DNA of 51,997 nt, the filler included, from Sphacelaria rigidula (taxonomy: Eukaryota), in NCBI GenBank assembly GCA_964200075.2. It is 3 parts of 3 records of this genome, joined end to end, with 100 filler letters (N's around TTAATTAATTAA, not from the genome) between each part and the next. Parts side by side here need not be neighbours in the genome. Positions count along the whole stretch, not along the records: positions 17,373 to 34,635 come from CAXNAA020001127.1; 2 more parts are not named here. One strand, written 5' to 3'. Positions 9,998 to 51,997 of this stretch are shown piece by piece. The translations under genes and the position numbers were made by a program. Below the pieces are notes generated by a model. That model was given only the letters and a program-made list of their open reading frames with translations. It was not told where the DNA came from and did no database searches. Numbering within the stretch: the first letter of the stretch is position 1; each line of letters starts with the position of its first letter.

Positions 9998-12900
9998 ATG
10001 GCGGAACAAGGTGATAGGCCTGCTGCAGTTAGGGGTGAGCAGGGCTTTACTGAGGAGTTGCGAGAAGTACGTAGTCAGATCAGTTCCTTGGCTCAGCTCA
10101 TGCGTGATATGCAGCTAAGCCAAGCTACATTACAGAGTAACATGGACAATATGAGATCAGAAGGAGATGCCGGGGGCGCAGAAAACAACGGCGTCCTCGA
10201 TAGTGGAGGTTCCCATAGTCAACAGGGAGAAATCAACATAAATAGAACAGTGGAGCGACGCGGTGCTGGAGTTCGACGAGAGCGACGGTACATCGGGAGC
10301 CAAGCTGTTCCAGAGGACGGAGCGCGCGACGCGTGGACAACGAGGCCACCAGTGACGAAGCTAGGGGCTTTGTCCCCGCACGTGAGTCAATCCAAATAAA
10401 CGATACAAGTGGAAATGTGTCAGGGGTTCCCGCTTTTCGACAGAACGTCCCAAAACTTTCAGGGAAGAGCGCTGGTTATGCTCGGTACAAGTACGAACTG
10501 GTCAACTTCGCAAGGGGCTGGGTGTTCACCATGGCCGGCGATAGTTCTTACGATGTGGATGTCGGTGATCCTGAGATAGAAATGGGGTATCTGGAGAGCA
10601 GACATGGAAAGGACACAGTGGCAGCCAACGTAAGGGCCAGACGAATGCTTGTAGCTAGTTTAGAAGGAAGGAGGGAGCAAGGTATTTTGCTTAGAACCCA
10701 CTCACCTGCTGCGGTTTGGAGAAAACTCGAGGATGTCGTTCGCCCCAAAACAAATGGGGCGAGAACCGCTTTGTTGGAAAAGTTCGATGGAGTCAAGATT
10801 GGTGTCCGTGATGATCCAGAGCAGAAGCTGCTCGAGATGGAGGAACTTGCACGTAACCTGAATTCATACAAGGAGCATGAACGACTAAGCGAAAACCATA
10901 TTCTCTTGAAATTCCTCAACGCGTTGCCTTTCGAGTATCACATCCAGAAACAACTACTAGAGGATCGAGAGGGATCACTGACACGGGAGGTTGTGTTGAC
11001 TTCGATCCGAAAGCGCTTCGAATCAATATCTTTGAAGCAGGAACTTACCCGGGAAAGGAGGTCATCCCCGGGCGACCAGGCTCTTCTTGCCAGGGGTGGC
11101 ACCGGAAAACCGAGCCGTGCGCACCGCACGCGAAAACTGGAAAAACCCCAGGGCTCTGGTAAGAAAAACGGCGGGAGCCAGAGTTCAAGTAGCTCTGGGT
11201 CGGCATCGTCGGACGGCAAACCGGCGATTGGGCAGCTGCTCCGCTGCCACATTTGCGACGAGAACACGACGCATCGAGCCAGGAACTGCCCGAAGAGATA
11301 CTGCGGGAGGTGCGGTCAGCAGGGGCACACGTTCTGGGATTGTCCAAGATCGACAGCGAAGAAAGAAGACGCGGTGATGGCGATGGGCGCGGCCGACGAC
11401 AGCGACAGCTCCTCCGTCTGTTCGGTGGCCGATGGGGAGGCTTTCACTTCTCTTGACACCACCATCAACAACGACACAGGCGAGTATGCATTGAGTGTTG
11501 AGCGGGGGGGTGATGGTCAGCAGGGTGAGGGCGAACCGTGGGTATTTGACACGGGGGCTACCCAGCATTTCTCCCACGATTCCCATGGGATGATGGAGTA
11601 CAGAGAGTGCAAGGGTAGGGTACTACGGTGCGCGGGAGTTAGTACTTACCCGGTCGTAGGCAGAGGAAATTTGTCTCTTGCCTTCAGATCTGACGGACAG
11701 GATGTAATTCTAAAACTAGTGGATGTTGACCATGTACCTGGTGTCCGGCATCACCCCTTGTCACTCACGAGGGTCCAACACATGGGACACACCTACACTG
11801 GTTTTCGTACAGGTTTCAGGGTAGATCTCAATTCAGGCAATACACTGATAATAATCGGACAACCACGTCAACTCAGAATGTACGCGCGCCGCCTCGATCA
11901 AAGTGGTAGTGACAAGTGTGCTTCGGCATATGCTGTTATTGCCCCGGGGGCTCCGCCTAACCCCCAGACCGCTGACATCAACGAGTTCCACTGTTCCCAC
12001 GCTCACGTGCACGAGGATTTACTGAGGAAGACGGCGAAGCAGCATAGAAAGCAGCTGGCTGGGGAGCTGCAGCCCTGCCGCGGCTGCTCAGAGGCGAAGG
12101 GACTGCGGACACCGATTCCAAGATCGACGCACACGAGAGCAGCTAAGTCAGCGTCTAGGGTGTTTGTAGATATTTCCGGACCGAAACCAGTCAAGTCTTA
12201 CGGGGGAAAGTCGCACACGATGATAGTCCGAGATGATCACTCACGGCATACCAAGCTGTATTTCCTCCGTAAGAAGGATGAGGCAGAGAGATACTTCGCG
12301 AAATACATTGCGTGGGTCTCTCCGAGAAAAATTGAGATAGTCCGTAGCGATGACGGGGGGGGATTTTCGGAGGGTGCATTTGGTTAACTGTGCGACAGGG
12401 AAGAGATCAAGCAGGAGAAGACAACTGCCGACACACCCCAGTTCAACGGTGTTGCAGAGCGAGCGTTAGATATCATCGAAACAGCAGGCCTTGCGGCCAG
12501 AATCCAAGCATCTGAGCTGCACCCCGATGAGCGCATCCCAAATGGTGACAGCTTGTTGGCTGAACAGGCAAACTGGGCGTGTCACGCCCTGAACTGTACC
12601 GCTACCTCGGCTGACCCGCACCACAAATCACCGCATGAGATGTGGTATGGATCACCACCGGAAGGTGATCTCATTCCGTTCTTGAAGCCTGGTTTTTGTA
12701 GGAGGAAGCGGGCAAATGAATTATAGCCGGAGGCCGAAAAATACTGGTACTTGAGCCCAGCCCCAGGCTACCCACGTGACGCGATGCGAGTTCTGACTGT
12801 ACGAGGAACTATCTCCGTGATAAGACATGTAACACGGGCACGTACGTCCGTCGCCCTCCCCCGCACACTACACCAAGCGATCCAGACGCCGGTCGAGCTG

Positions 12901-15324
12901 AAGGATTCCAGCGTCGATCAAGGCCAGGATATGGGTGGAGACAGGACAGAAAGCTCGACAGTGTACACTTCGCCCAGCGGTTCCTCAAGCGCGCCGTCCT
13001 CCCCGCCGAGTTCCGTTGGTGGGAAGGGCGGAGTAGCACCGCAGATCCCCGTCAGTAGTGGAGGGGGCGAAGTGCCTTCACCGTCCCCGCGAGAGGGGGG
13101 GGGGGAGGCGGGGAGAGACCAGAGATCCCCGTTCCAGATTTTGTCAACGGAGGAGGCGAGGTGGAGCCGGAATCATCATCATCATCATCATCATCAACAA
13201 CAACAACGTTAACATCAGCGCCGACGCCGACACCAGCACCAGACGCCGACACCTACGCCGACGCCGACATCAGCTTAGACGCCGACACCTACGCCGACGC
13301 TCACATCGGCATCGGACATTGCCTCGTCGCCCGCACTGTCACCCTCTTCCACGGGTCCCTCGCAAGGTGGCGGGGGGGGCGGCGACGCTCCTCAACTCCC
13401 GAGGACCGAGCAACGCCGTCTTGCGTGGGCTGACCGGTTACCAACACCAAGGGCGGGGCGTACGAGGAGCCAAATGCGCGAGGCAATGGGGTCGGTATAC
13501 GCACGAGACGAAAGGCTGGTGGCTGGCGGAGCGGAGGAAAGCAAGAAGGAAGCGGAGATGGTGCTGGCGGGAATGGCGGAGGACAAATGCTCAACCATGG
13601 AGATGATCACCGCGGCAGCGGGACAGGTGGCTGGACAAGACGCAATCGTTTCGACTCAATACGAGTTAGCTGAAAACGAGTTTTTTTGGTTTGTCGCTGA
13701 GGAAAACAGGGTAGGGCAGCCTGAATTCGGCTCGCGTTCACCGGTTGGTCTACACGTAAGCGAGATAGAGGCAGCACCAACCAGTATGGATGAAATTGCC
13801 AAGTCAGAATTTCGAGAGGCATGGTTAGGCGCGATGCAGGCCGAACTAGGAGGTCACGAAAAGGCTGGAACATTTTCGACTGGCCCTGTACCGGAAGCAG
13901 CAAACGTGATTTCAGCGAAGTGGGTTTTTAGTTGGAAGACCGACGCAGATGGTACTGTAACGAAGGAAAAGGCAAGGTTGGTAGCGCGAGGTTTTGGGCA
14001 ACGTTTTGCAGTCAACTATTTCGAGACTTTCGCGGCAACGCCCTCCATGGCCTAAATCAAACTGGTCATGGCAGTGGCAGTTCAGGAAGAGTGGCCGCTG
14101 TACCATTTTGACGTGACATAGGCTTTTGTTCAAGCGGAAATTGATACCGATGTATACATGAGGTTGCCTGAAGGTTGCTCCGTCTTGACAGACGTGACCG
14201 TAAAGCTTGAAAAATCTATTTACGGGATCAAGCAAGCAGGCAAGCAGTGGTCTCGTCTCCTGTGTCAAACTTTACTGGAGGATGGCGGGATGGTGCAGTG
14301 CGACGCTGATCCATGTGTTTTCAAGATGGAGGATGCAGGAGATGTGCGTGTGATTTTAGTTGTCCATGTGGACGATATCCTTATCAGTGGATCTGAGGAA
14401 TACGTAGGAAATATGGGCAAAATCCTCAACAAAACGTTCCCCTTGAACAATCTCGGAGAGTTCACACGGTACATGGGGTGCGCAGTGGATGGAGACCGGG
14501 ATAGAGGCACGTTGTCTGTGACGCAAACCACGTTCACGGACACACTCCTGAAGCGTTTTGAGGTGAGGGGGTACTCGGAAATCCCCGCCTCTGTTTCTGT
14601 AAAGTTGAGGCCGACAACGGGCGAAGACAAAAAGGTGAATCGCCCATACCGTAACGCAGTGGGGGGGTTGATGTGGCTGACAACAGTCACCAGACCCGAC
14701 ATCGCGAATTCGGTACGAGCGCTTGCTCGCCAGTCGCATGACCCATGCGAGAGGCACCGGGAAGTTGTTATGAAAGTTCTGAAGTACCTCAATGAGACGA
14801 AGAAGGTAGGACTTACGTTCAAGAAAACTCATGATAAGCTCTCAGTCTACTGCGATGCAGATTACGCCAAGAAGGAAACGGATAGGCGTTCGGTTTCAGG
14901 GGTAGCCGTGATGTACGGTGGTGTGGTAATGTCGGCAATGAGCCGCACGCAACACTGCGTAACTCTGTCAGCTACGGAGGCAGAGTATGTTGCAATGGCC
15001 GAGGGGGCAAAGGAGGGATTGTTTGTGGAGGCAGTGTTGACGTTCTTGCGACCGCAGACTGTGTCGGGAAGCGAGGAGAACCAAGGTATTCTTTTGTACG
15101 AGGACAACGAGGGAGCAAAAGCTCTGGCCGAAAATCCTCTTAGTTCCGAGAGGAGTAAGGACATAGACGTGAGATATCACTTCATTCGAGAGCTGGTGGG
15201 GACGGGAAAGATCAGGGTTGTACATGTAGGCTCAGGATGGCAGCATGCAGATATTTTGACGAAGCCTCTTCCGATCAGCCTGTTTACGAGGCACAGACGT
15301 TTCGTTGATGAACTTGGAAGGTGA
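9998..15324 (+). pseudogene. Copia gag-pol polyprotein, disrupted
   Basis: Gag-like AAVWRKLE...LLEKF; zinc knuckles CHICDENTTHRARNC and CGRCGQQGHTFWDC; protease WVFDTGATQH; integrase HCSHAH...CRGC, VFVDISGP, VRSDDGG and FNGVAER (read past the stop at 12385); RT WVFSWK, KARLVARG, YGIKQAG, VHVDD; RNase H YCDADYA, TEAEY, EDNEGA, QHADILTK. In-frame stops at 12385, 12724, 14053 and 14119. Frameshifts near 10330, 13100-13470 and 15300. Confidence 0.95.
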
Positions 15325-20300: not shown

Positions 20301-22711
20301 TTTGGGGGAAATATGGTTTCGCTCTGTGTGACTGTTTCGCGTCATCGCTGCAAGAATAGAATACCACTTGAACCTCATTCAAGAGATCAGCCTCAAGAAT
20401 GAGGATCCACTGTTACAAGCCATCTTTCTATTTTCGCTGACAGAGGCCGAGTCATACATCGGAGCTTGATCATTTCTGCTGGCACAGAACCAATTTCTTA
20501 TCGAAGCTTTGAAACCTGAACAAACCTGACTCGAGTTTCCACGACTACTCCGACGAACAGGGCATGTCTCGGCGTCTAGTCATCACGAGCAATTCCGGGA
20601 AGCCATCGATGGTTCGGATTCAATTCAGCACAACTGCATCGAATCAAGTATCGGAGGGATGGAACATTTCAACAGATCGATCATCTGTGACAACACCTTG
20701 GAATACCTTTCTGTTGATTTCAGTCCAGTGTTGAGGCCTGTGCAATAATCAGATCGCTCGTTTCCTCTCAACCCTGAACAATTCTGGCTAGACAATCACA
20801 TGATCCAGGGAGCAATACTAGTCGCCGGATAGACAGGCATGCAGCTTCAACTTGTTTCATTTGATACAATTTCCAGTTCTACTATGCCTCAGCCCTGAGT
20901 CTTTTTCCAGATGCCCCAGACGCAAAAAACAAGTAGAAGTCGATATACCCCCCCGCGCTAGGCTACATGTGCGCTGAAGCCGGATTGTTCTCGTTTTTCT
21001 CCGAGAAGGGTGTAGGAATGCATTTTCGGTCTGAACTTTGCAGAAACATCCCCTGAAAGGCGCGGACTACGGGTACGGGACGATCTGGTACTTAGTGGTC
21101 GCGCTGTTGAGACACTCAAGATTATGGGAGTGAAGGAGAGAGAAACCGGCCCTCGGGGATGACTCGCGACCCCCTCCCCCCCCCGTCCCCCCTCACTCAG
21201 AATCGTATGGAATTTCGGGGGTGGTGCAGTTACCATCACTAACCACGGCACGAAAGTTAGAAATGAAGCATCCTCTCTCTTCTGCGGACGCTCCGTCCCT
21301 CCGAAAAATATTGTTTTTGATCGGCTGGAGCTGTCGTACAGCAATTCCTCGAACGTTCGGCACCTTGAACTTCCTCTGATCCAAATTCGTAGTGGTTCAA
21401 CCCCCGTGATAGGTCGACAAGACGGAAGCCATTGAGGCGTAGTCTGAAACGAGCTAGCCGAAACTCTAAGGATAGTTTGGGAATGTAGCGAACAAAAATC
21501 TACAGGAACTCAATTTCTTCACGTTCTCGGGCGTATTTCAGCGTGTCAGCGAATTAAAAATGAGATGTTCCGCACTGTTATTTCTGCGAAGAACGAAGAG
21601 TAATCAAACCCGGAAGTAGCACCTAATGAACTCATTTCACTTGGGGTGACCATTACGATTGCTGGAATGACAACAGCTGATGAGAAAGAAAAAGCGATTG
21701 TTCGGTTCCAAGTCGTCCTCATTGAGTCTGAGGATTATTGCCATTCAAAACTCAAGGCATCACGACAAATGCGGGAAAGCCGCACAAGATGAATCGATGT
21801 CTTCGGACCACCACGTTGAAGCTAATTTGAGACGTACGACTAGTCCTACAGAATAGTCACTGACGTGACCTTCGACAAACAAGTGAATCCAAAGACGAGG
21901 ACGAATCTGAGTGGAGTGTCACGATTATTCGACTCTTTGGTCGTCGTAGACTGTTTTCGAAGCCTCCAGTCGTGATCACGAGATAGGCACACCCAAGGTG
22001 GACGTGAGCAAACTGGGAACGCGTGCTAAAGGAATACTCGATAAACGACAGACGGCAAGAAGAGAAGGATACGATGAAGCATGTGGGCCAAAACGTGGAA
22101 ATAAGGATGAAACATGGAACCAAACGGGAAAGGGAAGGCAACGGAATTGAAGGAAACAGAAAAAAAACACGCCAACCCCAAATCAAGTACTGGTGGCGAA
22201 CACAAACGGAAATGACGCACAAACACAAGAAATGGCCGGAACCTGCTGCACGCGCTCGGTTTACGATGCTGTAAAAAAGCAATTGCATGGGGGAAATGTT
22301 GACGAGCACACCTCAAGTTGATCTCCTGAATTACGGCAGAATGTGAGCGAGTCAAATTCCAGCCGTCATGACTAACCCAGTAAATATGGCGAGAATTTGA
22401 CTCGACTCACTGAGCAAAGATGAGGATGACCGTCGAACCCGATGCTCTTTCGCGATTCTTGCGCCCTTAGCCATCTGCCGAGATTTTTGTGGGCTTGGAT
22501 ACGCTGTACGTTTCCGGTTGTAAATGTTCCGCCATTGAAGATGACTGACAGACAATCGTCCACTATGCTCACTATCGTCATGATTTTTACTCATCCAGCC
22601 ATCCGCAGAAGGAGACGGGTCAAGTCTTCGACTCTACGTCAACAAGTTCACAAGCTCCACCCGTTGTACCACAGGGGCGAAGCGACATCACGGTGTGCTC
22701 CCAGATTACAC

Positions 22712-23152
22712 ACACGGGAGTTTACAAATTGGGGATGGATTTTATATCGAGGATAAGAACCCCGAAAAATAAAATCTTCGTATCCACAACAAACATTTGG
22801 AAAATTGGCCCACTCCTTCAACTACAGGTTACTTTGGACAACTACTACAAGCAATACAAATTGGATCCTGATAACCCGTCTGTTGGGGTTCTAGGTGAAG
22901 AAACAGTATTGAGGAATTTAGATGATCAGATCAGATCGCAGAAATTCCTTAAAACTGGTATTTCACCTTGGACCCTAACATGACCGGTTAAGAAAATCCA
23001 AATGTGTATGGCGTGTAGTAGTTGTCAAAAGCTACCAGCAAGTAGAGAAATGGATCCATATTTCGATGATCTGATGTGGATACGAAGACATGATTTCTCC
23101 GGATTTCTCATCCTTGATGAAAAATCCATCCCCAATTTGTATACTCCTGTGT
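22712..23152. mobile_element. MITE-like element with about 155-bp imperfect terminal inverted repeats
   Basis: 22712-22866 (ACACGGGAGTTTACAAATTGGGGATGGATTTT...GACAACTACTAC...TTGGAT) is the diverged reverse complement of about 22996-23152. Even the ORF track shows TGVYKLGMDF on both strands. Confidence 0.8.
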
Positions 23153-23681
23153 TACAAACTTGATGTACGCGGCTAAAACCACAGCGCGCCTGAGGTAAAT
23201 CCACCATACCCATACTGGGGCAAGTAGAACTCTCTGGAGTCGTGGTCTGACAGAACAAAATCGCCGTACGCATTTTTGTTCGTGGTACAGATGCTAGCGT
23301 AGGATGGACAAGCGTGGCAGTGCGTGCTGCACCAGTCAAAACACGTTGGGGAAAAGTGCGAATCACAAGTGAAACAGTGGTGTCATGGTTCATCGAGTGG
23401 CCGACTTCTACGGTCCATCTACTTGCGGCCAGCTTTTGGCAAGTTGTCACTCAAGCACACGGTCAACGCGAGTATGAAGACTGCGCCTCGACCAGAATCT
23501 GGTGGAACGTTGCGCTGAAATATCAGAACCCGCAGCCTCACGAACTGCTTTACACCACTGGAAGAAAAAACAATCTTTTCGGCCAACTGTCGTTTGAGAC
23601 CGCTGACAACATACGCGAGCACGCACCAGCACCCTTCCACGTTAATCTGAGCAAAGGCGCCAATATGAGAAATGGTGCCAT

Positions 23682-25724
23682 CTACCACGCTTCGGACGCC
23701 GGAGGATTCGCACTGGACACTCCTAGCTCAAATTTTACGTTCGAATCCTGTTTTTCCTCTTCCAAAGCCGCATCATCCACTTCGCCCAGGCGCCCAGGTA
23801 CCACTGCCGGCGAACTACAAATCTGCCCATTACTTTCACCATCACTGCTGACTAAGCCACTACCACCACGCGCGCTTCTCCAACTGCTCGAAGAGGCAGC
23901 AAGCTCACGACACTCCCTCATCCCATCGCTACTGTGAGTGGTGGAAGGGACTGCCACCTCTATCTTCATCCCTGCTCCTGCTTTTGTCCCAAAAGTCACC
24001 TTTCCACCAGTCCTTGAAACTGAGCATCCCGAGAGCAATGGCGTTCTTACACCCTGCCTGGGACCGGCATCGGCATTGCGGCGAGCACCAACAAAGTCGT
24101 TTGCAACAGAACCCGAGATTGCCGCGCGATTTCGTTTCGTTCCTCGTACATCAGCAACGCTTTCTCCGCTGACCTCCGTCGGGCCACGGTCGGGGGCGCC
24201 CTCCTCAGTGTTGAGCTTCGCGGTATCAGACACCGCAGCCGTTTTACGTACAGTAGCGTGTTCTCGGTAAAACTTCGCCTCGTCAACGTTGTGCTTCTTG
24301 TGGATAACACATCCGGAGAACCCCACTTCATCGCAACGTTTTCTACCCATTTTCACCATTCCCGCCCTGACATGTTCAGAGCAGTACTCTGCCTTTGCGC
24401 TGCCCGCGACACCGTACGACCGCCTGTTGGAGCATCGCTCGTAGCTGTAGTTCTTGTTCACCACATCCACCATTTCCGTCCTGGCATGCTTGGAGCAGGA
24501 CCCCACCTTGTTTCCCACTAAACCATCAGACGCCGTAGTGGAGCAGCCCTCGTAGCCGCTGCTCTTGTTCACAGCATTCACCATGGTTGCCATGGCATGC
24601 TTGGAGCAGAACTTCGCTTTCTTGCTTCCCACTGCACCGCAAGACACCCGAGTCGAGCAGCCCTTGTAGCCGCACAAACTAACTCGCACATTCACCATCC
24701 CTGCCATGGCATGCTTGGAGCAAAACCCCGCCTTCTTGCTCCCCGCCACACCAAAAGAGGGATGCTTCGAGCAGCGCTCGTAGCCGCACCTCTTGTTCAC
24801 AACACTCACCATCCCCGCCACGGCATGCTTGGAGCAAAACTCCGTCTTCTTGCTCCCCACTACACCATAAGACGCCCTAGTTGAGCAGCCCTCGTGGCCG
24901 CACGTGTTGCTCCGCACATGCACCATTCCCACCGTGGCATGCTTGGAGCAGAACTCCGCCTTCTTGCTGCCGACCAATCCAAAGGACGCATGAGTGAAGC
25001 AGGCCTCGTGGGCGCACCTCTTCTTGACAACATTCACCATCCCCGCCATAGAATGCTTGGAACAGAACTCCGCCTTCTTACTTCCCACTGCACCATAAGA
25101 CGGCTGCGTGGAGCAGCCCTCGTAGAAACACTTTGTCGCTCTCACGTCCACCATCCCCGCCCTTGCATGTTCAAAGCAGAACTCCGCCTTCTTGCTTCCC
25201 ACCACACCATACGACGGACGCTTTGAGCAGCCCTCGTAGCTGCACCTCTTGCTTTTCACGTCCACCATCCCCGCCCTGGCGTGCTCAAAGCAGAACTCCG
25301 CTTTCTTGCTTCCTACTACACCATACGACGGATGCTTTGAGCAGCCCTCGTCGCCGCACCTCTTGCTCACCACATTTACCATCCCCGACCTGGCGTGCTC
25401 AGTGCAGAACTCCGCTTTCTTGCTTCCTGCCACACCATACGACGGATGCCTTGAGCAGCCCTCGTCGCCGCACCTCTTCTTCACAACATTCACCATCCCC
25501 GCACTGGCATGTTCAAAGCAGAACTCCGCCTTTTTGCTTCCTACTACACCATACGACGGATTCTTTGAGCAGCCCTCGTCGCCGCACGTCTTCTTCATAA
25601 CATTCACCATCCCCGCCCTGGCATGCTCAAGGCAGAACTCCGCCTTTTTGCTTCCTACTACACCATACGACGGATGCTTTGAGCAGCACTCGTCACCGCA
25701 TCTCTTCTTCACAACACTCACCAT
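23682..25724 (-). CDS. EsV-1-7 cysteine-rich repeat protein (about 680 aa from the first ATG; upstream exons possible)
   Basis: The 775-codon open frame starts at a TTG; the first ATG is at 25724. It contains about 12 tandem 38-aa units with consensus CGDEGCSKHPSYGVVGSKKAEFCxEHARAGMVxVxxKR (C-x4-C-x16-C-x2-H). This is the motif of Ectocarpus siliculosus virus ORF 7 and of the expanded brown algal family that includes IMMEDIATE UPRIGHT. Confidence 0.88.
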   Translation of the reverse strand: MVSVVKKRCGDECCSKHPSYGVVGSKKAEFCLEHARAGMVNVMKKTCGDEGCSKNPSYGVVGSKKAEFCFEHASAGMVNVVKKRCGDEGCSRHPSYGVAGSKKAEFCTEHARSGMVNVVSKRCGDEGCSKHPSYGVVGSKKAEFCFEHARAGMVDVKSKRCSYEGCSKRPSYGVVGSKKAEFCFEHARAGMVDVRATKCFYEGCSTQPSYGAVGSKKAEFCSKHSMAGMVNVVKKRCAHEACFTHASFGLVGSKKAEFCSKHATVGMVHVRSNTCGHEGCSTRASYGVVGSKKTEFCSKHAVAGMVSVVNKRCGYERCSKHPSFGVAGSKKAGFCSKHAMAGMVNVRVSLCGYKGCSTRVSCGAVGSKKAKFCSKHAMATMVNAVNKSSGYEGCSTTASDGLVGNKVGSCSKHARTEMVDVVNKNYSYERCSNRRSYGVAGSAKAEYCSEHVRAGMVKMGRKRCDEVGFSGCVIHKKHNVDEAKFYREHATVRKTAAVSDTAKLNTEEGAPDRGPTEVSGESVADVRGTKRNRAAISGSVANDFVGARRNADAGPRQGVRTPLLSGCSVSRTGGKVTFGTKAGAGMKIEVAVPSTTHSSDGMRECRELAASSSSWRSARGGSGLVSSDGESNGQICSSPAVVPGRLGEVDDAALEEEKQDSNVKFELGVSSANPPASEAW

Positions 25725-25850
25725 CCCCGCCCTGGCGTGCTCAGAGCAGAACTCCGCGTGTAGCCCTGTGCACCGTGATATGGCGGCTCGGAGCAGCCCT
25801 TGGTGACGCACCTTTCTTTTGCTACGTCGACCTTCAGGTCCTTCGCATGC
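24255..25850 (-). repeat. Coding tandem array, 114-bp unit (EsV-1-7 repeats)
   Basis: On the plus strand, CACCATCCCCGC...GCAGAACTCCGC...GAGCAGCCCTCG recurs every 114 bp. There are 12 recognisable units plus a degenerate unit at each end. Confidence 0.95.
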
Positions 25851-28800
25851 GGCTGCTTCGAAGACTAACTGCTCACGGTAGCACAAATGCCAAAACGGCG
25901 GGAGGTCTGCCGTGAGCCATGTGTGAAAGCGAGTTGGAATGCTTTGCAAAACGATCGGCACTTTTGTTGGGGCACATACTCCGGAGAAAAAGAGGCTGCC
26001 TGCATTCAACTCAGACCACGCTACATGTAAGCTGACCGTAACAACTGCAGCACCACTTCAAGAGAGTTCGAGCGAACGGGACATCCTGTACACTACTGCA
26101 GTAGGGATCGAAAGCGAACAAAGCGCTATCGTAGTGCAATAGCAGGAATGTGCGGCGGGAAACATGCCGAAGCACCATAGCACCACAAAAGCCTGCCCGA
26201 ACTTGAACAGAGACGAGACAGTGGATTTGAATCGAAAGTACTACAGATACCATATCTGCTGTCATCGTTTCGACGCACACTCCGTCTGCATGGCACCATA
26301 TAGCACGACAACGCCGAGACGCACCAGAGGGACGAGGTTCAGCAGATGCACGCCGGCGTGCGAAGGCAACTGCGAAAAATGGCCCAGGCCATGTTCTAGG
26401 CCATGATCTTATCGTTATTTCCCTGCTGGGTATTCCTCGTTGCACAAATAGAAGCAGCGTCCAAAACGTCGTCGGCAATGTATTCTAGCTTGCACAGCAC
26501 CCCAGGTGAAGACGGCAACTCCCAGATGCACTATCGTAACACAGTCCGTGCATCGGCGGTAAGATGTTTCAAAAAGCCTTGTCAGCCACGCGCCGTCATG
26601 GAAAGGAAGTATTCACTCCTCGCAACTTTATTTGCTTCTGGTGTTCTGTACGGGATCAACATGACTTCTCATCGCGTGTAAGACAGGCTTCACAAGAAGT
26701 TCTATACGCAGAGGCACCGGATTGTCATCATTGTAATGGTACCAATGAGCCGTTGTGCTGTGTTCTGCCGTGGCTGTCGCTGGTGTTCAAAAGCCGCAGT
26801 GGTGAAACTACACAAACGACGCCAAATGAATCGTGCCTGATGGGGTACCATGTGATGTCGACGCATGGATACTGCGCTCGCCGTGAATTCAACGGCAACG
26901 GTGCAGTTTGGTGCAAGGTGGCAAGTACTGTGCTTATGTGACTCTTACCTGTGCAGATCGCGCCTTGTACACCATCCGGATACGTTTTGGCGACTGTGTA
27001 CGTTTGTCCGGCGTGAATTAACTACACAAGGTGTGAAGGCGATCCTGTACAGCTGTTCTCAAGTAGCTGTAAGCCCGTGAGGATTACTTCAACAAAACAC
27101 CGTATAAGAAAGCAGCGGAGACCCTCGCCAATGAGAGACGTCACGACAGGCAACGGTGTAGATTTCCGTCTGTTGCAGGACTATCGACACATGGACACAA
27201 TCATGCGTGATGCACATGTTTCGTATATCCCAGCGTATACTAAAAGCTATCCTGGGCACACACTATACGTCCTGTTGGGGGGGTCTCAGCAGAGTACGGT
27301 GGATCGAAGGCCCGCATCACAGCCCCCCGCACCATACTGGTAAAGTGGAGCTACTTTCAGTAGTCTAGCGGATAGGAAATAGGAAATGTGACAAGTAGGA
27401 CAAGTAATCTTGACTGCACCATGTGGCATTTCCATTGTACGAAGTAATACAGGGCAAACCTACCGAACAACAGGACAGGATCATTTCGGGTATTTGCAGA
27501 GGAGAAATTGTTATTTTCCATTGGGTTCATGGGAGTAACCCGCCGGCATGACATGGGAGTAATGTTGATGGTCGCCTTCAAAAGTGCATGCAACACCGAA
27601 CCACAGCCCTAACCCAAGTAATTCGCGACGTGATAGCATGTACGATGTGAGACGCATATGCGATGTGAGTAGCTGGAAAACGTCACAGTTCAATCATGAG
27701 AAATGTAAGACGCTTGCACATACAATCCGCATCTGAGTTGCGTCTAGTGTTCACGACCGGCAATGCACAAAGTGACTGTACTGTTGAGCACACCCACTAT
27801 GCATGAGCACGCGGTGCTGTGGTAACCAAGAGCAACGCATGCTGCCTGTTCGGCAAGCGCGAGTCCGAATGACGTGTACCAATCCCCTTGGCGCATTGCA
27901 GTATTGATGATCGAGCGAGCGGCATTGCGTTGGTCGCGCTTACCGTCGACGCGTGCGCTCCATTTGTTTCACGAAGCAAGCGAGAGAAATGAACATGCTT
28001 GTCCGTGCCACATGAATATTCAACACTTTCGACAGATTAAAAATATGTCCCTGCTCCAGATATCTGATATGAAATATGCCGTTTCCCTGGAATGAACGAT
28101 CTGCCAATCTTTGGGAATGATGCCCAAGACTCGCAGAAAACCACACACCATTGTAAAACGTTGCTTCGAAATCGAAGAATACCTGCAAACGTCGGAGAAT
28201 GCTGCTCCCAACTGGTATGTATCTGGGAACGTCCATATCGGTCGTGATTCTGTTCCGCTCGATCGCTGGAATTGCAAAACGGGTATCCCGTGTGCTGGAC
28301 GGCGATTTATCCGATGGTTGGAAGCCAGTCATTTGTTATTTTCGTACAGGACATGCTCAGTGTACTTGAGGAGAAAAATATCAATAACTGCCGAATCTCC
28401 CGGAGAGCACGCGCATACGCCGATCTGTAAACATATATATATATATACAGTGATCAAATATCTTCCGCTTTCTGTCGCACATATGTACGTGTTAATATCC
28501 GATTAGCACAGCCTGATGCCAGTCGGTCAGTTGTACAACAACAGAGAAATATTGTGGGAATTGAGTGACCGGCTTTACAGAGAAAAAGGGGTCACCTAGC
28601 GTAGCTGATAATGACATGTCTTGAATCTTGTTACCTACATCAGGCAAACATGTAGAGAAACTCCAGACATATCTCATATCATTCGAAACCATTGATATGA
28701 CTCTTCAGATGGTCTGATAATACGTCTGAGAAGGTTCCTCTCGATTCACGGATATCGGAAAACGTTCCAAAGAGTTGTGCCGAAAGAAGAACATGCCTGC

Positions 28801-29325
28801 ATTTGTTTGAAAGAGCCGTCTCTGGGGTGAACAGTTGTTCCACGTGTGCTGGGCCCAATCCTTCTAGAAAAACAGGTTTTGTACCCATGTCGTTCACACA
28901 TGTTCTGCTACGGGTAGGTATGTCACGTATGTCACTCGCAAATGTTACGAACAAACAGATGGATACTCTCCGCGTGTCACATCCGTAAGCTTTAAAGTGG
29001 ACACGTGTTCCGCGTACGCTCGACAGATGCGTTTTGAAGTGAACAGCTGTTCAACAAATCGAACACGGAAAAAACTAACGCATTCGTACGTGTTCCGATT
29101 CGGGAATTTACTGCATAGTCAGTGCAGACAATAAACAAGTAGTATAACCGTGTGCTGCGACTCACTGTACGGCGCGGTGCCCTTTTCATCGCAGGGTGTG
29201 CAAACGCCACAGTAGGTGTGGGGGTAGGGGGGGGAGATGCCCAGATAGGAGAGGATACGGCAACGCACGACACGCGTCACAAAAGTAGCGGCTGTATATA
29301 GTGAAGAATCACTTCCCCCCCGCCT

Positions 29326-29655
29326 GGCCCTGATGGTGTAATGGTATGACTGTTACCGCTATGGTGGAGAGTATGTGAGTTCGATTCCTGCCGGATCCGT
29401 TGGTTATCATGTTCGAAGCATCTGACTTACACCGTCGAAAGCGTGAGTACGTGTGTGAACAAAAAGCAGTTGACATGCGTTTGTTTGACGAGAGTTGACG
29501 CCATGCGGGAGTGCTCCACCAATTCGCGAGACTCAAAATGCAAGGCGTGTACCGGGGGTTCCACTCATGATCATGCATGCCATAGTAGTAAAGATCATTG
29601 AGCTTACATCCCTACGAAGCCGAGACAGAGCACACCGGGTTCTCGCCGGACCAGG
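29326..29655 (+). mobile_element. tRNA-derived SINE, family A (with head)
   Basis: The head has Pol III A-box TGGTGTAATGG and B-box GAGTTCGATTC but no clean cloverleaf. The 3' about 110 bp recurs at 30118-30252. Confidence 0.7.
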
Positions 29656-29873
29656 TTCGCTCTCGATCACCAAGCGCTAAGTGCCGTGGTGTGTTCGACT
29701 GATCGCATGAAGGGTGAGCTGCATCCTGCTAAGACTGTTCGGCCCGAAGCCCGGTGATTATCTTGCATTTGGATGACAGCCTACAATGAGCTGCTTTAGT
29801 TTCTGGTATCGCCCCTTCCAGAGACAGCCACGGCTTATACATTGCCTCGTGGGTGTCTCACGATTATTACAGT

Positions 29874-30120
29874 ACGTAGTACGATCATCTCCGTTGTGCG
29901 GAGTCGGGCTTCTCCCACGCCGCACTACATGATCTCGCTCGACTACCATCATGCTCACGACAAACAAACGCAAGCGCGCAGAACAAAATCGGTCACCTGG
30001 CTCCCTAGCTTACGCAGTGAGTGATGTGTTTGGCAGCGTCATCGCCAACCGACGTCAACCCCATCGGGGGTACGCCCCTACGAAGTCGGGACATTGCACG
30101 CCGGGTTCTCGCACCCGGGC
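29874..30120 (+). mobile_element. Interspersed repeat, probably the 3' end of a non-LTR retroelement
   Basis: Clear diverged reverse-complement match to 51749-51997. It ends in the same about 45-bp tail as SINE family A. Confidence 0.65.
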
Positions 30121-30252
30121 TGTACACGGGGGGGGGGGGAGGGGTGTACTCATGATCGTGCATGCCACAGTCATAAGACCATTGGCCTCGCATCCCTACA
30201 AAGCCGGGACGAAGCACGCCGGGGTTTCGCCGGACCAGGCGCGGGGGGGGGG
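30118..30252 (+). mobile_element. SINE family A, 3' fragment
   Basis: ACTCATGATCGTGCATGCCA...CCCTACAAAGCCGGGAC...TCGCCGGACCAGG matches about 29545-29655; followed by a G run. Confidence 0.75.
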
Positions 30253-30567
30253 CGCACTCATTTGTTGCTTCCCTCAATCGTTTGACCATTGACCACGCAT
30301 CCCTTTCAAGACACAGCGTGTAGCGAGGAGAGATGGGTTGATCCCCTGAGACAACGGACTCGTCCCCAGGTAGAGGAGGGGTTCAGAATATGACATCTGG
30401 GATGCTCGATGTAGAGTGTGGCGATACTGTCAGCTTCGGCCACCGTTGCTGTACCCGTAAATATATCGTGAAGGGTAGGCCATGCATTTCATTTTTGGTA
30501 GAGCGTCCTGCCGACCACGAGTGCTGTGCCGAAAGAAGCCGGAAGTCCCTCTGCATTCCGATGACCT

Positions 30568-30597
30568 GGTCGCCCCGGTGGCTCAGTTGATAATTTC
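30568..30597 (+). mobile_element. SINE family B head fragment, interrupted by a hAT-like element
   Basis: GGTCGCCCCGGTGGCTCAGTTGATAATTTC matches the first 30 nt of the family B head. Confidence 0.55.
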
Positions 30598-31530
30598 CAG
30601 GGCTGTACATGTTCCACATGGCACAGCATTAAACGTGAACGTCAAGTTTGTTTTACCTGATAAACATAACGTGACGTAATCCTTGGAACTTCATGTAGAA
30701 CGTTAACGTAACGTGACATTTTTTACGAGCCAAAGGGAACGTAACCTGAGCGCTTAATTGCCCAAACGTTCGAAACACGTGATATAAATGCTTCATGAAA
30801 CGTGTAAGGTCTAATAGACGCCATACGTGTATTAGACTTTACACGCTACATGACACGTCATAAGCACGTTACATGAAACGGTGCACACTTCAAGTATGAA
30901 ATCAATTTTGAATTCCTAGAAGATTGTGCTGCAATGAACACTAGTGAGTTTTCATGCCCATGCTATAGGACATACTATTTTAGCAAGTTCGCGCGCTCCG
31001 CCCCATAGCACACGTTGCCAGATATCGTTGCAGCACATCATAATATCATAATCATCCACATTCATATCAGTAGAAGAGACCGGGTGTGGCGTAACCATTC
31101 ACGTCACGTTCACGTGCAGTGAGTACATGAGATGGATCCAGGGGGGGTATCGACGGGTCCTCAAGTAGGGGGTGCCGCAGACTCCAGACAATCTCGATCG
31201 TTGCCTGCAGCTGCACCATCTACCGCAACGGCAAACTGCAGTACCGACGACTCGCCTGCCTGGTGGCCGCCACGATCATTGATCATTGTGCAAAACGAGC
31301 GGAACAAAGTGAATGTCGCCACACGAAGTCGTCGGCGTACTCTCTGACCGCTCTGCAGGTACATGACCCAATTGCCGCCTGCCTCGTCTAACGGCAAGAA
31401 CGTCATCTGCCGAGTCTTGACGTCGAAGGGCGACCGGTGCGACCACCTCACGATACACGTGTCCAATACCGGAACGGGCGTCATGTCGAACCACATGAAG
31501 AGAAGTCACCAAAACATCTACAAGTTGTGA
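30598..31530 (+). mobile_element. Left arm of a hAT-like DNA transposon with a dead BED zinc-finger ORF
   Basis: Begins CAGGGCTG (hAT-type terminus), followed by about 300 bp dense in ACGT/AACGT motifs. The frame of ORF 31132, read past the TGA at 31345, gives PLCRYM...VICRVLTSKGDRCDH...TGTGVMSNHMKRSHQNIY (BED-type C..C..H-x4-H). No catalytic domain or right end found. Confidence 0.65.
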
Positions 31531-34500
31531 ATGGCGACGGGCGTACACTCCAGCGCGGTACAGCGCGAGAGGGGAGGTATCCTTCAGCGGGCCCCATCAG
31601 CAACAGGTGTGTGTGTGTGTGTGTGTGTGATGTAAGAGAACGGCAGTACAGCTAAACGCCGAAAAAATGCCACAGTGATGATTCCAGTAGCGGTTGATTA
31701 TCTTCTCTTATGTTGGTTTGCGGTAGGCAATTGTTAATGGCGGTACGGCGCTGATACAAGTTACGATGCTTGTACAACAGTGCTGACATAGTAGGTCCAG
31801 TGTACTGTGCCACGTCCTGTGCCACACTTTACGTTGCGGCGGCTGCGCTCCATACACTTGCAACATGAGACACGTTAGCTCAAGGGTACGTACTACAGAC
31901 AGAGAAACATCGTGTGTGGCACCGAGTCTATGGGTAAGGATCACTATGAAATAATGAAACTCAAATCAGCGATTTTTTCGTTGTTTTCCATTATTCTTGT
32001 CGGGATTTCGCTGCATACACATGCGCTACTCAAACGCTACCTGTTGCAGAGATGTCAACAAGGGTGCACTGTTTGGTTATTTGTTGTCCGGGTCTAGTCT
32101 GGGCTTTTTTTTCCTCCGTTGGCTTGTTACAGCCCAGGATAGTAGCAGGAGGAGAGCTGGAAACAACATATGCAGGCAGCATTGATCATATTTTTCATAC
32201 GCACCAAGTCATGAAGCAAGCGAAGCGTACTGTGCACCTTCGAAAGGAAGCGGCGTTCTAGCACACGGGATCGGATACAGGAGAGAAATACATGAATACT
32301 TTAGTTAGCCACATGACGTTCCGTGTATACAGTGCTTGGTTGTCTCCGGCGTTGTACCCCAACAACTTTCTGTCGCGACACCGACTGTATCTGTATCGCA
32401 CGAAGATATGCCAGCGCTGGCCAGCCAGGCGGCACCGTGTTTGTCATACCTGTACGGTACCGACCAATGCGAGCCATCCAGAACAACAGCACGACAGACC
32501 ACAAAAGGGAGCCAGTAGCGTTGGTGCGGGTACAGTCCCTCTTCCGGGTTATGTTTTGTCCGAGCAGAATAAAACAATACACAACGATGACCATGGAGCT
32601 ATCTTCAATCATGCCCCGTATCCAAGGCCGTGCAGGATGCAGCAGCAAGCCAGAGCGCAAATGGAGACTGCAACACCAACCTCTGCTACCGCAACCGTAC
32701 CGCGGGCACGGCGACACTCAACGCAAACGTTGGGTACACTTACACGTATATCGATAGATGGAGCACCGCCCGTGACGCCATTGTTGTCTTGGATATCATC
32801 CCGCCTCCGCACAGTACGGTACAGCGGCTGCGGGTACCAGAAGACCGGAAAAATCATGTGTGACAGAATCTACACTAAAATCATGTTTGTACTATCAAAT
32901 GTGCCATGAAACGTTGAGGGGCCAGAATTTGAAATTACATTCCTTGAAATTAGTGTTTGTACTATGAAAATAAACCCGTACCCATGGGCCCGCCACCGCG
33001 TGTGTACTGTTATGGGGGTGAATGAAGGCCTTACCGACCAAAACTCCGGTTCCCACAATAATAAAATTGAATGCGGACGGATATTGAAGACGTATTGAAG
33101 ACGTCATAGACTTGTCGGGCCTGTGCCGAACCCCTGCCAAAAATGACACACGCTCCATCCCAAGTTACCCAGGTTTAGTATGCGACAGCTTGAATTTGTT
33201 TCATCGCAATAACCTCGAGACAGGAAGCACAGCGGCCTCTGGAACTTCACAGCCCGCAGCACACACAGAACACCTATACAGCAGCGCAAGCAGATTTACC
33301 CCATTCGCCACAGGGGATCCAAAAAGTCCCAGAACGTTGCAGGAAACGCGTTTTTCAGAACATTTTGTGTTTGGTGCAGCGGTTTCTGAAGTGCTGGGCA
33401 CGCGTGCGGAAATCTGTGGCTACACTGAACAATTCCGGTGTATGGGAAGCGCACGCATCAAACCGCAGTCGAATCCTTTACCTGGTTGCCGAGAAAATAG
33501 AGTCGAAAAATCGGCAGTTGTGAGTTGAGGGCCCGCAGTTTTTGCGGAGGTGAAAAATGGGAAATTCTCAGAAGCAGGGTGTTTCGAAGTACAAGGGAAG
33601 AACCGGTCAAGACTTGACCTGTGCCCTGGCGGCCGCGCGCAAGGTCAAGGCGGCGCCTCAACGCGCGGAGAAGGCTGAAAAAAAACTCAAGGCGGCCACT
33701 GAAAGGCTCAACGCGGTCACCGAAACGTTTGACGCGTCTGTTTCATGCCAGAGTATTAGAGGTCCAACGCATAAGCTACGCCGGTGCGCCCAATTTGTTT
33801 TGCGGTCCTTTGGTCCTTCCACAGTCGGCAGACAGCAATGATGCTTTCGGTAACTGACTGTGAATGCTAGTAACAATATGTGGACAATGCAACATGGGAC
33901 AAGCTTCGTTTTGAAGGGGGATGTGTATGTATCTTCCGTCCTGCCATGTGGTACTGATTTCTTATATGCGCTTGTGTACAAGGCGCAATTCATTCTCTCA
34001 ACATAAAGTACCACGGACTATATAGTTTGCTCTGATCAAAATCGGCTGTGTTGTGTCTACGCTATCGAGTGCACAAGCCAGGGCCTCAAGCGCGGTCTTT
34101 TCAATGTTCGATGTACTCCCTTTCATAGACCGAAGGCAGCCATGACGTTTGCTGTCACCACTGACCGTGTGCATCAATAACAAGATAACAGGAGGAAACT
34201 ATGAGACTGGACAGGCGGGATAATTGTGCATCGCCTCTGTACACCAACGACAATCCGAAAAAATGCGCTGTCTCCACTGCCTATGTACATTGATAACAAG
34301 CTATTCTGTGTTGCTGTGCAAAGCAACTTCGCGTTACAACAGCAAGTACCCGTCACCTCTCGAATTGCAGTGGGCGAGGTTACACATGAACGTCGTCTGA
34401 GCGTACGTCGGTCGGATCAAGCGCAGGAACGCAGGTGTGAAGAGCGGTTTTGACCATCGTCTGTGTACCGCACTTCACGGACTAACAGCAGCAGCCGTGA

Positions 34501-51727: not shown

Positions 51728-51997
51728 CCCCTTTCCTCCCTCTCCCCAGCCTGGTCCGTCGAGAACCCGGCGTGCTCCGTCCCAACTTTGTAGGGGCGGA
51801 ACCCCCGATGGGGTTGGCGTCGGTTGGCGATAACGCCATAAAACACGCCGCTCCCTGCGTAAGCTAGGCAACCAGGTTGCCGATTGCTTTGCGCGCTTAC
51901 GATGTTTTTGCGGTATCCATGATGGTAGTCGAGCTAGATCATGTTGTGCGGCGTGGGAGGTCCTCAACTCCGCACAATGGGGATGATCGTACTACGT
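51728..51997 (-). mobile_element. Second copy of the 29874-30120 repeat, inside a CFAP47 intron and cut by the window edge
   Basis: The reverse complement reads ACGTAGTACGATCATC...CCTAGCTTACGCAG...CCCCTACAAAGTTGGGACGGAGCACGCCGGGTTCTCGACGGACCAGGC followed by a G-rich tail. Confidence 0.75.

Follow-up and report, generated by a model that had tools for sequence, protein, structure and literature searches.

The window analysed here, a 51,997-nt stretch of Sphacelaria rigidula DNA (assembly GCA_964200075.2), joins parts of three records. The part from CAXNAA020001127.1 carries on its minus strand a long array of EsV-1-7 repeats, a member of the family (PF19114) that includes Ectocarpus IMMEDIATE UPRIGHT (IMM). 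On balance, we think it likely that this gene encodes a nuclear zinc-repeat array that binds DNA in a sequence-specific manner, kin to the targeting arms of viral nucleases and expanded in the manner of KRAB zinc fingers. A preliminary description of the locus had proposed a conserved scaffold with hypervariable specificity residues. That general idea is supported by fast evolution of positions 3, 4 and 15 of the unit beyond silent variation, by the freezing of these positions in orthologues and by the fusion of related arrays to a DNA nuclease fold, but the specific code proposed is unsupported.

The array consists of 12 units of 114 nt (25718..24354) in a frame of 791 codons without stops. 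The PF19114 profile scores 560 bits against a cut-off of 25 over 13 stretches of the 791-aa frame, and a Pfam scan of that frame gave nothing else beyond a sub-threshold DUF1490. The units repeat with a 38-aa period and the spacing C-x4-C-x16-C-x2-H, a Cys/His pattern that suggests zinc binding, and are numbered here as linker 1-6, Cys7, Cys12, 13-28, Cys29, His32 and 33-38. Ten of the 12 units are canonical, the exceptions being units 11 and 12, in which the first Cys is missing. In the paralogous locus L025, which shares a contig with L072, the unit matching the decayed unit 11 retains the first Cys, Tyr18 and Phe28, and the Tyr that replaces the first Cys in unit 12 is a subfamily trait, present also in L025/L072 and L062. 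The first Met is codon 112 of the frame (ATG at 25724) and is the putative start, although an upstream exon may precede it. In paralogues L062, L063 and L072, the stretch homologous to the relic leader unit (Table 1) keeps the frame of the array. Homologues of the array are brown-algal and giant-virus proteins.

Table 1. Features of the EsV-1-7 gene and its surroundings, in window positions.
Feature	Position	Strand	Remark
Stop-to-stop open frame, 791 codons	23682..26057	-	Intron between array and stop not needed
Likeliest coding sequence, 680 aa: 12 units, degenerate 13th, low-complexity tail	23682..25724	-	First in-frame ATG
Relic leader unit, out of frame with array	25769..25864	-	
Half unit (C-x2-H part) ahead of unit 1	25719..25757	-	
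Unit 1, residues 3/4/15 = V K H	25605..25718	-	
Unit 2, 3/4/15 = M K N	25491..25604	-	
Unit 3, 3/4/15 = V K H	25377..25490	-	
Unit 4, 3/4/15 = V S H	25263..25376	-	
Unit 5, 3/4/15 = K S R	25149..25262	-	
Unit 6, 3/4/15 = R A Q	25035..25148	-	
Unit 7, 3/4/15 = V K H	24921..25034	-	
Unit 8, 3/4/15 = R S R	24807..24920	-	
Unit 9, 3/4/15 = V N H	24693..24806	-	
Unit 10, 3/4/15 = R V R	24579..24692	-	
Unit 11, decayed: no first Cys, Tyr18 or Phe28; one residue short	24468..24578	-	
Unit 12, Tyr in place of first Cys	24354..24467	-	
Degenerate terminal unit	24249..24353	-	By eye
KRNR, variant of KRKR motif	24126..24137	-	K kept 96%, R 99% (90 homologous tails)
First psi-K-x-E motif, MKIE	23958..23969	-	K 96%, E 97% conserved
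Second psi-K-x-E motif, VKFE	23727..23738	-	K 97%, E 89% conserved
Duplicated block with gene	23100..31917	.	About a dozen other contigs share the non-coding flanks at 77-89% identity

A search of the genome for units yielded 4575 candidates, 150 of which were scored. The 92 other contigs among the scored hits were taken and, together with the window, make up a first set of 93 loci, with 105 frames and 1289 canonical units. A search with the tail gave 112 matches among 122 candidates, and 40 further loci picked by tail similarity (472 units) form a hold-out. The counts are restricted to units whose Cys/His spacing is exact, which leaves out degenerate units and makes the four Cys/His columns invariant by construction. 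The genome contains more than 100 paralogues, which carry 3-28 canonical units each (median 13), compared with five in IMM according to a preprint (bioRxiv 10.1101/2024.02.19.579948). The closest paralogues, with a synonymous difference (pS) in the tail of about 0.1-0.19, differ from the window gene in unit number and order, and never more than three consecutive triplets of residues 3, 4 and 15 are common to any two loci. In 15 of 133 loci the array is broken over more than one frame.

Several lines of evidence indicate that positions 3, 4 and 15 diversify. Within arrays, the ratio of nonsynonymous to synonymous differences (pN/pS) exceeds 1 only at these positions, with values of 1.29, 1.38 and 1.36, respectively, in 88 arrays of at least five units. 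Disjoint pairs of units chosen on columns 20-38 alone give 1.54, 1.54 and 1.52 (364/578 pairs), and other cut-offs for disjoint pairs agree with the 364-pair result. In the hold-out (39 tail-picked arrays) the values are 1.53, 1.66 and 1.54 globally and 1.18, 1.35 and 1.34 against local silent sites, where position 9 reaches 1.24. A model-free comparison at strict 38-aa spacing shows that codon positions 1 and 2 of residues 3, 4 and 15 differ 1.6-2.1 times as often as four-fold sites. The codon excess is present in 66, 67 and 71 of 85 arrays and in 31, 32 and 30 of 35 hold-out arrays. Single codon positions of residues 1, 6, 9, 13, 30 and 34 (in the hold-out also of 14 and 16) exceed four-fold sites as well, as toggles such as N/D or K/T. 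The tail, with a median dN/dS (the equivalent nonsynonymous-to-synonymous ratio) of 0.96 by an estimator similar to that used for the array, provides a rough neutral calibration. The evidence for diversifying selection is good for position 15 and moderate for 3 and 4. Residues at position 15 are 46% K/R/H, 29% Q/N, 0.7% D/E and 0.6% P; positions 3 and 15 hardly ever hold an acidic residue, and units carry a net charge of +2.5 to +3.3.

These positions only partly coincide with those named in the preliminary description, which placed the variation in the linker and in the two residues after Cys-Ser (14-15 in our numbering). Its list of dyads (KH, KN, RH, KH, KR, TQ, TH, TR, KH, TR, TT, NR) matches the sequence exactly, and its hypervariable sites hold for position 15 and for linker positions 3 and 4. 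Position 14 is constrained (pN/pS 0.54), which removes the suggested adjacent dyad of TALE (transcription activator-like effector) type. The scaffold it described stands in 10 of the 12 units, the lack of the first Cys setting units 11 and 12 apart, and unit 7 has CF for CS.

A covariation rule was also proposed, by which xVVxKR linkers precede His at position 15 and linkers with K/R third precede Arg or Gln. Within the window this is accurate for five of five and four of four units, but it covers only nine of the 12; units 2, 11 and 12 fall outside, and unit 12 (DVVNKN) combines Val third with Arg. The permutation p value of 1.7e-4 in the window is post hoc, and units 1-5 are recent copies that group in a single clade. 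The rule was rejected outside the window. In the other 92 loci (1279 units), xVVxKR precedes His in 25 of 101 cases (base 151/1279) and K/R third precedes R/Q in 185 of 356 (base 627/1279). The five closest paralogues show the opposite trend, with His after V3 in 2/25 and after K/R3 in 7/35. The hold-out agrees with the first set: His follows xVVxKR in 8/37 cases and R/Q follows K/R third in 85/181 (base R/Q 201/472). Coupling of 3 with 15 ranks 1171 of 1342 pairs by within-array permutation in this genome. Pairing of position 15 with the linker of the next unit was also rejected, the coupling ranks being 890 and 1208 of 1342. The simpler alternative, copying of two ancestral unit types, finds no backing in the remainder of the unit, on which the types do not separate (p=0.21), and neither the rule nor this alternative is established.

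Positions that diversify among paralogues are frozen in an old gene. An orthogroup of eight proteins from Ectocarpus, Scytosiphon, Cladosiphon, Nemacystus, Laminaria and Sphacelaria (a ninth, partial member was excluded) spans three algal orders. Positions 3, 4, 15 and 17 differ in 0-2% of its 101 orthologous unit pairs versus 51-100% of 460 non-orthologous pairs, whereas positions 8, 9, 24, 27, 34 and 35 differ in 31-45% of the orthologous pairs. Eleven collinear non-nuclease pairs lean toward conservation of 3, 4 and 15. A second probable orthologue pair, P0017 and P0056, has five units identical at 3, 4, 15 and 17.

The same positions recur in viral relatives. A profile search yields 9174 clusters at 50% identity. 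When columns are ranked by their variability within proteins, 4, 15 and 3 lead in 130 host arrays, 15, 3, 17 and 4 in 166 nuclease-fused arrays, and 3, 15 and 4 in 91 other proteins, a set that partly carries the window-type tail and is not fully independent. Viral-type and host arrays draw on similar residues at 4 and 15, the nuclease-fused proteins using S, N, H, K and D at position 4 and R, Q, I, L and H at position 15. Direct coupling analysis (DCA), run without the invariant columns that otherwise swamp the signal, ranks 4-15 third of 1334 pairs in nuclease-fused arrays, among probable core pairs (28-37, 8-27). Within-protein mutual information (MI) gives the pair a z score of 11 (rank 5/476) in these arrays. 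Host arrays alone are too shallow for DCA (effective number of sequences, Meff, 86). The coupling suggests that residues 4 and 15 touch or share a ligand, and such a contact would fit their placement on either side of the Cys7-Cys12 knuckle.

The fused domain lies C-terminal to the repeats, and its hidden Markov model (HMM) matches 44 of 120, 2 of 17 and 107 of 124 homologues in three sets. It has the motif E-x-D-E-x-Q-H, with D63, E76, D78, E79, Q81 and H82 invariant in 26 sequences. Pfam and NCBIfam give this viral tail no name, DUF559 appearing in two of 26 at E 0.03. The best matches of its model (predicted local distance difference test, pLDDT, 83) are I-Bth0305I (3r3p; Z 7.5, root-mean-square deviation (rmsd) 3.5, 95 aligned) and Vsr (1cw0; Z 7.5, rmsd 3.4, 107 aligned). 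Foldseek rows are mostly PD-(D/E)XK nucleases, none at E<=0.001. As modelled, the viral tail is a Vsr-like nuclease fold with conserved acidic and His residues. I-Bth0305I is described as having repeated N-terminal DNA-binding motifs followed by a Vsr-like domain (PMC3239194). The viral relatives resemble the I-Bth0305I/EDxHD homing endonucleases and Vsr in having repeated N-terminal modules ahead of a C-terminal Vsr-like nuclease. Unlike I-Bth0305I, they use EsV-1-7 repeats rather than NUMODs, carry the E-x-D-E-x-Q-H motif and occur as free-standing frames. The window protein differs from all of these in lacking a nuclease: the HMM matches none of the 105 host frames of the first set, the window frame included. 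A single query also found no nuclease domain in the rest of its genome, which does not show absence.

Genes for the repeat-nuclease proteins sit on IMG/VR contigs, several labelled as giant-virus metagenome-assembled genomes. A capsid-like motif, which we take to be that of a major capsid protein, lies within 3 kb of the repeat-nuclease gene in nine of 37 cases; free-standing homing nucleases are known to sit beside conserved genes. In L037, L038, L040, L041, L044, L047, L049, L154 and L159, the repeat-nuclease gene is near the capsid-like gene, often directly upstream. L035:2995-4995 and L036:3001-5448 come from closely related viruses with shared neighbours and have 13 and 17 repeats, respectively, before a near-identical nuclease. 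The array model has structural neighbours among proteins of Faunusvirus, Cedratvirus and Pithovirus whose entries bear the name Endonuclease. Other partners occur as well. One report describes an Ectocarpus Mariner transposase with an N-terminal EsV-1-7 domain (PMC12477816), and P0127 and P0128 combine EsV-1-7 arrays with helicase-associated HA domains (PF03457) in one protein.

In the host, the array is followed by a tail in which only short motifs persist. Across 90 homologous tails, only KRKR, K-V-E and V-K-L-E are kept, up to 96-99%, against a median of 58%. A psi-K-x-E motif, which we take to be a SUMO-site consensus, occurs in 66 of 68 tails versus 9 in shuffles, and K[RK]x[RK], presumably a nuclear-localisation-like signal of KRKR type, in 55 of 68 versus 12. 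In non-nuclease database homologues, psi-K-x-E is present in 55 of 109 versus 11 in shuffles. These motifs are under purifying selection, and the remainder of the tail is near-neutral.

KRAB zinc-finger proteins and PRDM9 carry tandem C2H2 arrays whose contact positions diversify in young paralogues and freeze in old orthologues. The EsV-1-7 subfamily resembles them in its long single-frame arrays, in lineage-specific expansion by duplication, birth and death, in the short effector-type motifs outside the array and in a few fixed positions that diversify in young genes and are frozen in old ones, as seen in one orthogroup and with weaker maximum likelihood (ML) support at 3 and 4. The window array differs from C2H2 proteins in its Cys-Cys-Cys-His (CCCH) modules, 38-aa period and lack of a match to the zf-C2H2 profile, and its variable residues sit in the linker and beyond the knuckle, not on a helix. 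Unlike KRAB zinc-finger genes, the 791-aa frame has no KRAB, SCAN or SET domain, although an upstream exon is possible. By analogy, the array may work like KRAB zinc fingers without being a member of that family.

Similarities to other modular readers are also apparent. Like TALE proteins, the array has near-identical tandem units with few hypervariable residues in a gene-specific order, but TALE repeats are helical, 33-35 aa long and variable at an adjacent pair, whereas the EsV-1-7 unit is predicted to be a short-strand zinc module with non-adjacent variable residues. A possible parallel to pentatricopeptide repeat (PPR) proteins is a non-adjacent pair of positions, here 4 and 15, whose covariation is strong in nuclease-fused arrays and weak in host arrays. 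The fold differs from the 35-aa helix-turn-helix of PPR proteins, the tail is of nuclear type, and the ligand is more likely DNA.

In the mechanism that we favour, each C-x4-C-x16-C-x2-H module of 38 residues, basic at about +3, would bind zinc, and linker residues 3 and 4 would form a patch with residue 15 at the foot of the Cys7-Cys12 knuckle, joined by residue 17 in viral and older algal arrays. The patch would set the base preference of each module, and module order would set a long target site. The tail, probably disordered, would supply a nuclear signal and two SUMO-type motifs that recruit SUMO-dependent regulators, and the protein would regulate transcription, probably by repression. 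Fused to a Vsr-like, homing-type nuclease, the arrays of giant viruses would be its targeting arm. Host arrays, which may descend from such viral nucleases, lack the nuclease, and their more than 100 paralogues remodel arrays fast, as KRAB zinc fingers do. Two regimes are apparent, as in C2H2 genes: long-established genes in which the putative code is frozen, and a recent expansion in which it diversifies.

Several results weigh against this mechanism. In ML site models (86 arrays, 1194 units after removal of duplicates and register-shifted units), omega depends on the model and ranges from 1.19 to 2.0 at position 15 and from 1.0 to 1.69 at 3 and 4. The strictest setting combines third-position frequencies with site-specific silent rates and yields 1.0 at 3 and 4 and a non-significant 1.19 at 15 (p 0.15), and gene conversion may inflate such tests. 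Positions 3-15 and 3-16 are uncoupled in DCA. In host arrays, 4-15 is weak, ranking 25/476 by within-protein MI and 27/1342 by within-array permutation, with a concordance of 0.06 versus up to 0.10 for synonymous controls, and it ranks 106/476 in the non-nuclease database set. Freezing is seen in one gene, in which positions 13, 14, 26 and 30 are likewise conserved, and eight collinear nuclease-fused pairs show no special conservation of 3, 4 and 15. The five-unit array model is middling (pLDDT 67, predicted template modelling score, pTM, 0.29); it places short strands at 18-20 and 37-39 and has no helix of four or more residues, and coevolution is the one pointer to a single surface patch. 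The Z of 7.5 for the viral tail is likewise middling; a RAP domain (FASTKD4) reaches 7.1 with the same tail. Host tails are paralogous, and their motif counts are hence not independent. There are 567 distinct 3-4-15 triplets in 1761 units, which argues against a simple one-repeat-one-base cipher; any code would be degenerate. Three runs presumed to be RNA cover the array and tail and leave most flanks uncovered, mainly as 50-100-nt pieces with mismatches that point to reads from paralogues, and no splice joint of the window gene was found in them.

Binding of proteins is the strongest rival, although we judge it unlikely. The variable surfaces would then serve, for instance, to receive or trap proteins of pathogens or viruses, akin to leucine-rich or tetratricopeptide repeat (LRR/TPR) immune receptors. 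Diversifying sites and fast array remodelling fit this equally well. Moreover, the single unit gives matches of Z 2.0-3.2 to RING and B-box domains, which bind proteins; the best, to a RING domain (Z 3.2, rmsd 2.2, 40 aligned), is weak and comes from the model of pLDDT 67. Foldseek found no solved structure for the array model at E<=0.001, sequence searches of the Protein Data Bank (PDB) gave nothing useful, and the Atlas returned only EsV-1-7 clusters. Against protein binding, nuclease and transposase fusions place the array where DNA-binding arms normally sit, the near-exclusion of acidic residues at 3 and 15 and the basic charge of the unit are unfavourable, and the code is frozen in the old orthogroup.

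Modular reading of RNA, with post-transcriptional action like that of PPR or octotricopeptide (OPR) repeats, appears somewhat less probable still. A basic patch rich in Q, R, H, N and S suits RNA as well as DNA, and the viral tail resembles the RAP domains of FASTKD4 and of mitoribosomal proteins. However, that tail has invariant E, D, E, Q and H residues with an upstream D, its top matches are DNA endonucleases, and the transposase fusion also suggests DNA.

It is about as improbable that no code exists and that 3, 4 and 15 are just the surface positions under least constraint in a basic repeat that binds nucleic acid non-specifically, with gene conversion mimicking selection. The strictest ML values fit this explanation, as does a site-preference (omega*) model, a fitness-landscape test in which nearly all columns exceed 1 and 3, 4 and 15 are not singled out. 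The excess over silent sites was nevertheless replicated in tree-free tests and in the hold-out. Furthermore, unconstrained sites would not freeze in orthologues while 8, 9, 34 and 35 drift, nor would they keep one alphabet across viruses and alga.

The gene lies in a duplicated block of at least 9 kb whose copies end at differing places. No terminal inverted repeats were found to bound it, and no common termini, target-site duplication or transposase were seen in this fragmented assembly. In 14 flank stretches no transposase-like long frame was recognised, and the two of four long frames that were scanned have no Pfam match. That a large non-autonomous mobile element carries the gene, as cargo or as one of its components, and that the copies are selfish rather than host regulators, would suit the sharing of the block among about a dozen contigs, the split-frame arrays and the existence of a transposase with an EsV-1-7 domain, but is highly improbable given the variable block ends, the lack of inverted repeats or a recognised transposase-like frame, and purifying selection on the scaffold and tail motifs.

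The accessible parts of published sources say little on the mechanism of the family. Its expansion in brown algae has been described (bioRxiv 10.1101/2024.02.19.579948), as has its rank as the largest orthogroup (bioRxiv 10.64898/2026.04.27.720984), and its members have been hypothesised to be zinc-finger transcription factors (PMC12629598, citing Macaisne 2017). In these parts of the EsV-1-7 literature no ligand, specificity residues, site-specific selection, nuclease fusion or SUMO/nuclear-localisation tail is named, and a literature search, with the founding paper and preprint supplements outside its scope, found no publication that deals with specificity residues of EsV-1-7 repeats or with their fusion to a nuclease. 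What is already published is the family itself, together with its expansion and its link to viruses; a testable mechanism with host-side selection, orthologue freezing and the 4-15 pair is new.

This is the largest brown-algal gene family and includes a developmental regulator, its published function, as far as these sources extend, being the zinc-finger hypothesis only. Three or four named positions, a nuclease-fused relative with cleavage as a read-out and a conserved orthogroup make its function directly testable. If such a code exists, the family would be a brown-algal parallel to animal KRAB zinc fingers, built from a module shared with giant viruses, and its repeats would join C2H2, TALE and PPR as a new modular scaffold for DNA binding. 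We offer more tentatively, as a possibility, the wider proposal of an independent programmable DNA-recognition scaffold with a code at 3, 4, 15 and perhaps 17. It would serve giant viruses as a natural zinc-array nuclease. Brown algae would have adopted and enlarged it into a system like that of KRAB zinc fingers, with SUMO-tailed repressors chasing transposons or integrated virus DNA, and older members such as IMM would have become developmental regulators.

Four runs differ from the window: all of them show the substitutions T>A (23853) and T>C (24205), and one, X5, has an extra G after 25968; these differences may be alleles, paralogues or assembly errors. Just 3' of the stop, a palindromic element of about 440 nt (22712-23152) has many genomic copies at 72-81% and resembles a miniature inverted-repeat transposable element (MITE). 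A 2.3-kb repeat at 20421-22742 is about 79% identical to several contigs and contains no recognised protein. Elsewhere in the window, a Copia-type long terminal repeat (LTR) retrotransposon occupies 10246-15324 (+) in several frames, with gag, a Pol beta-barrel and then RVT_2 in two pieces. A high-copy repeat at 29370-30330 has very high contig depth in four runs, and a partial copy lies at 51728-51997, the window end.

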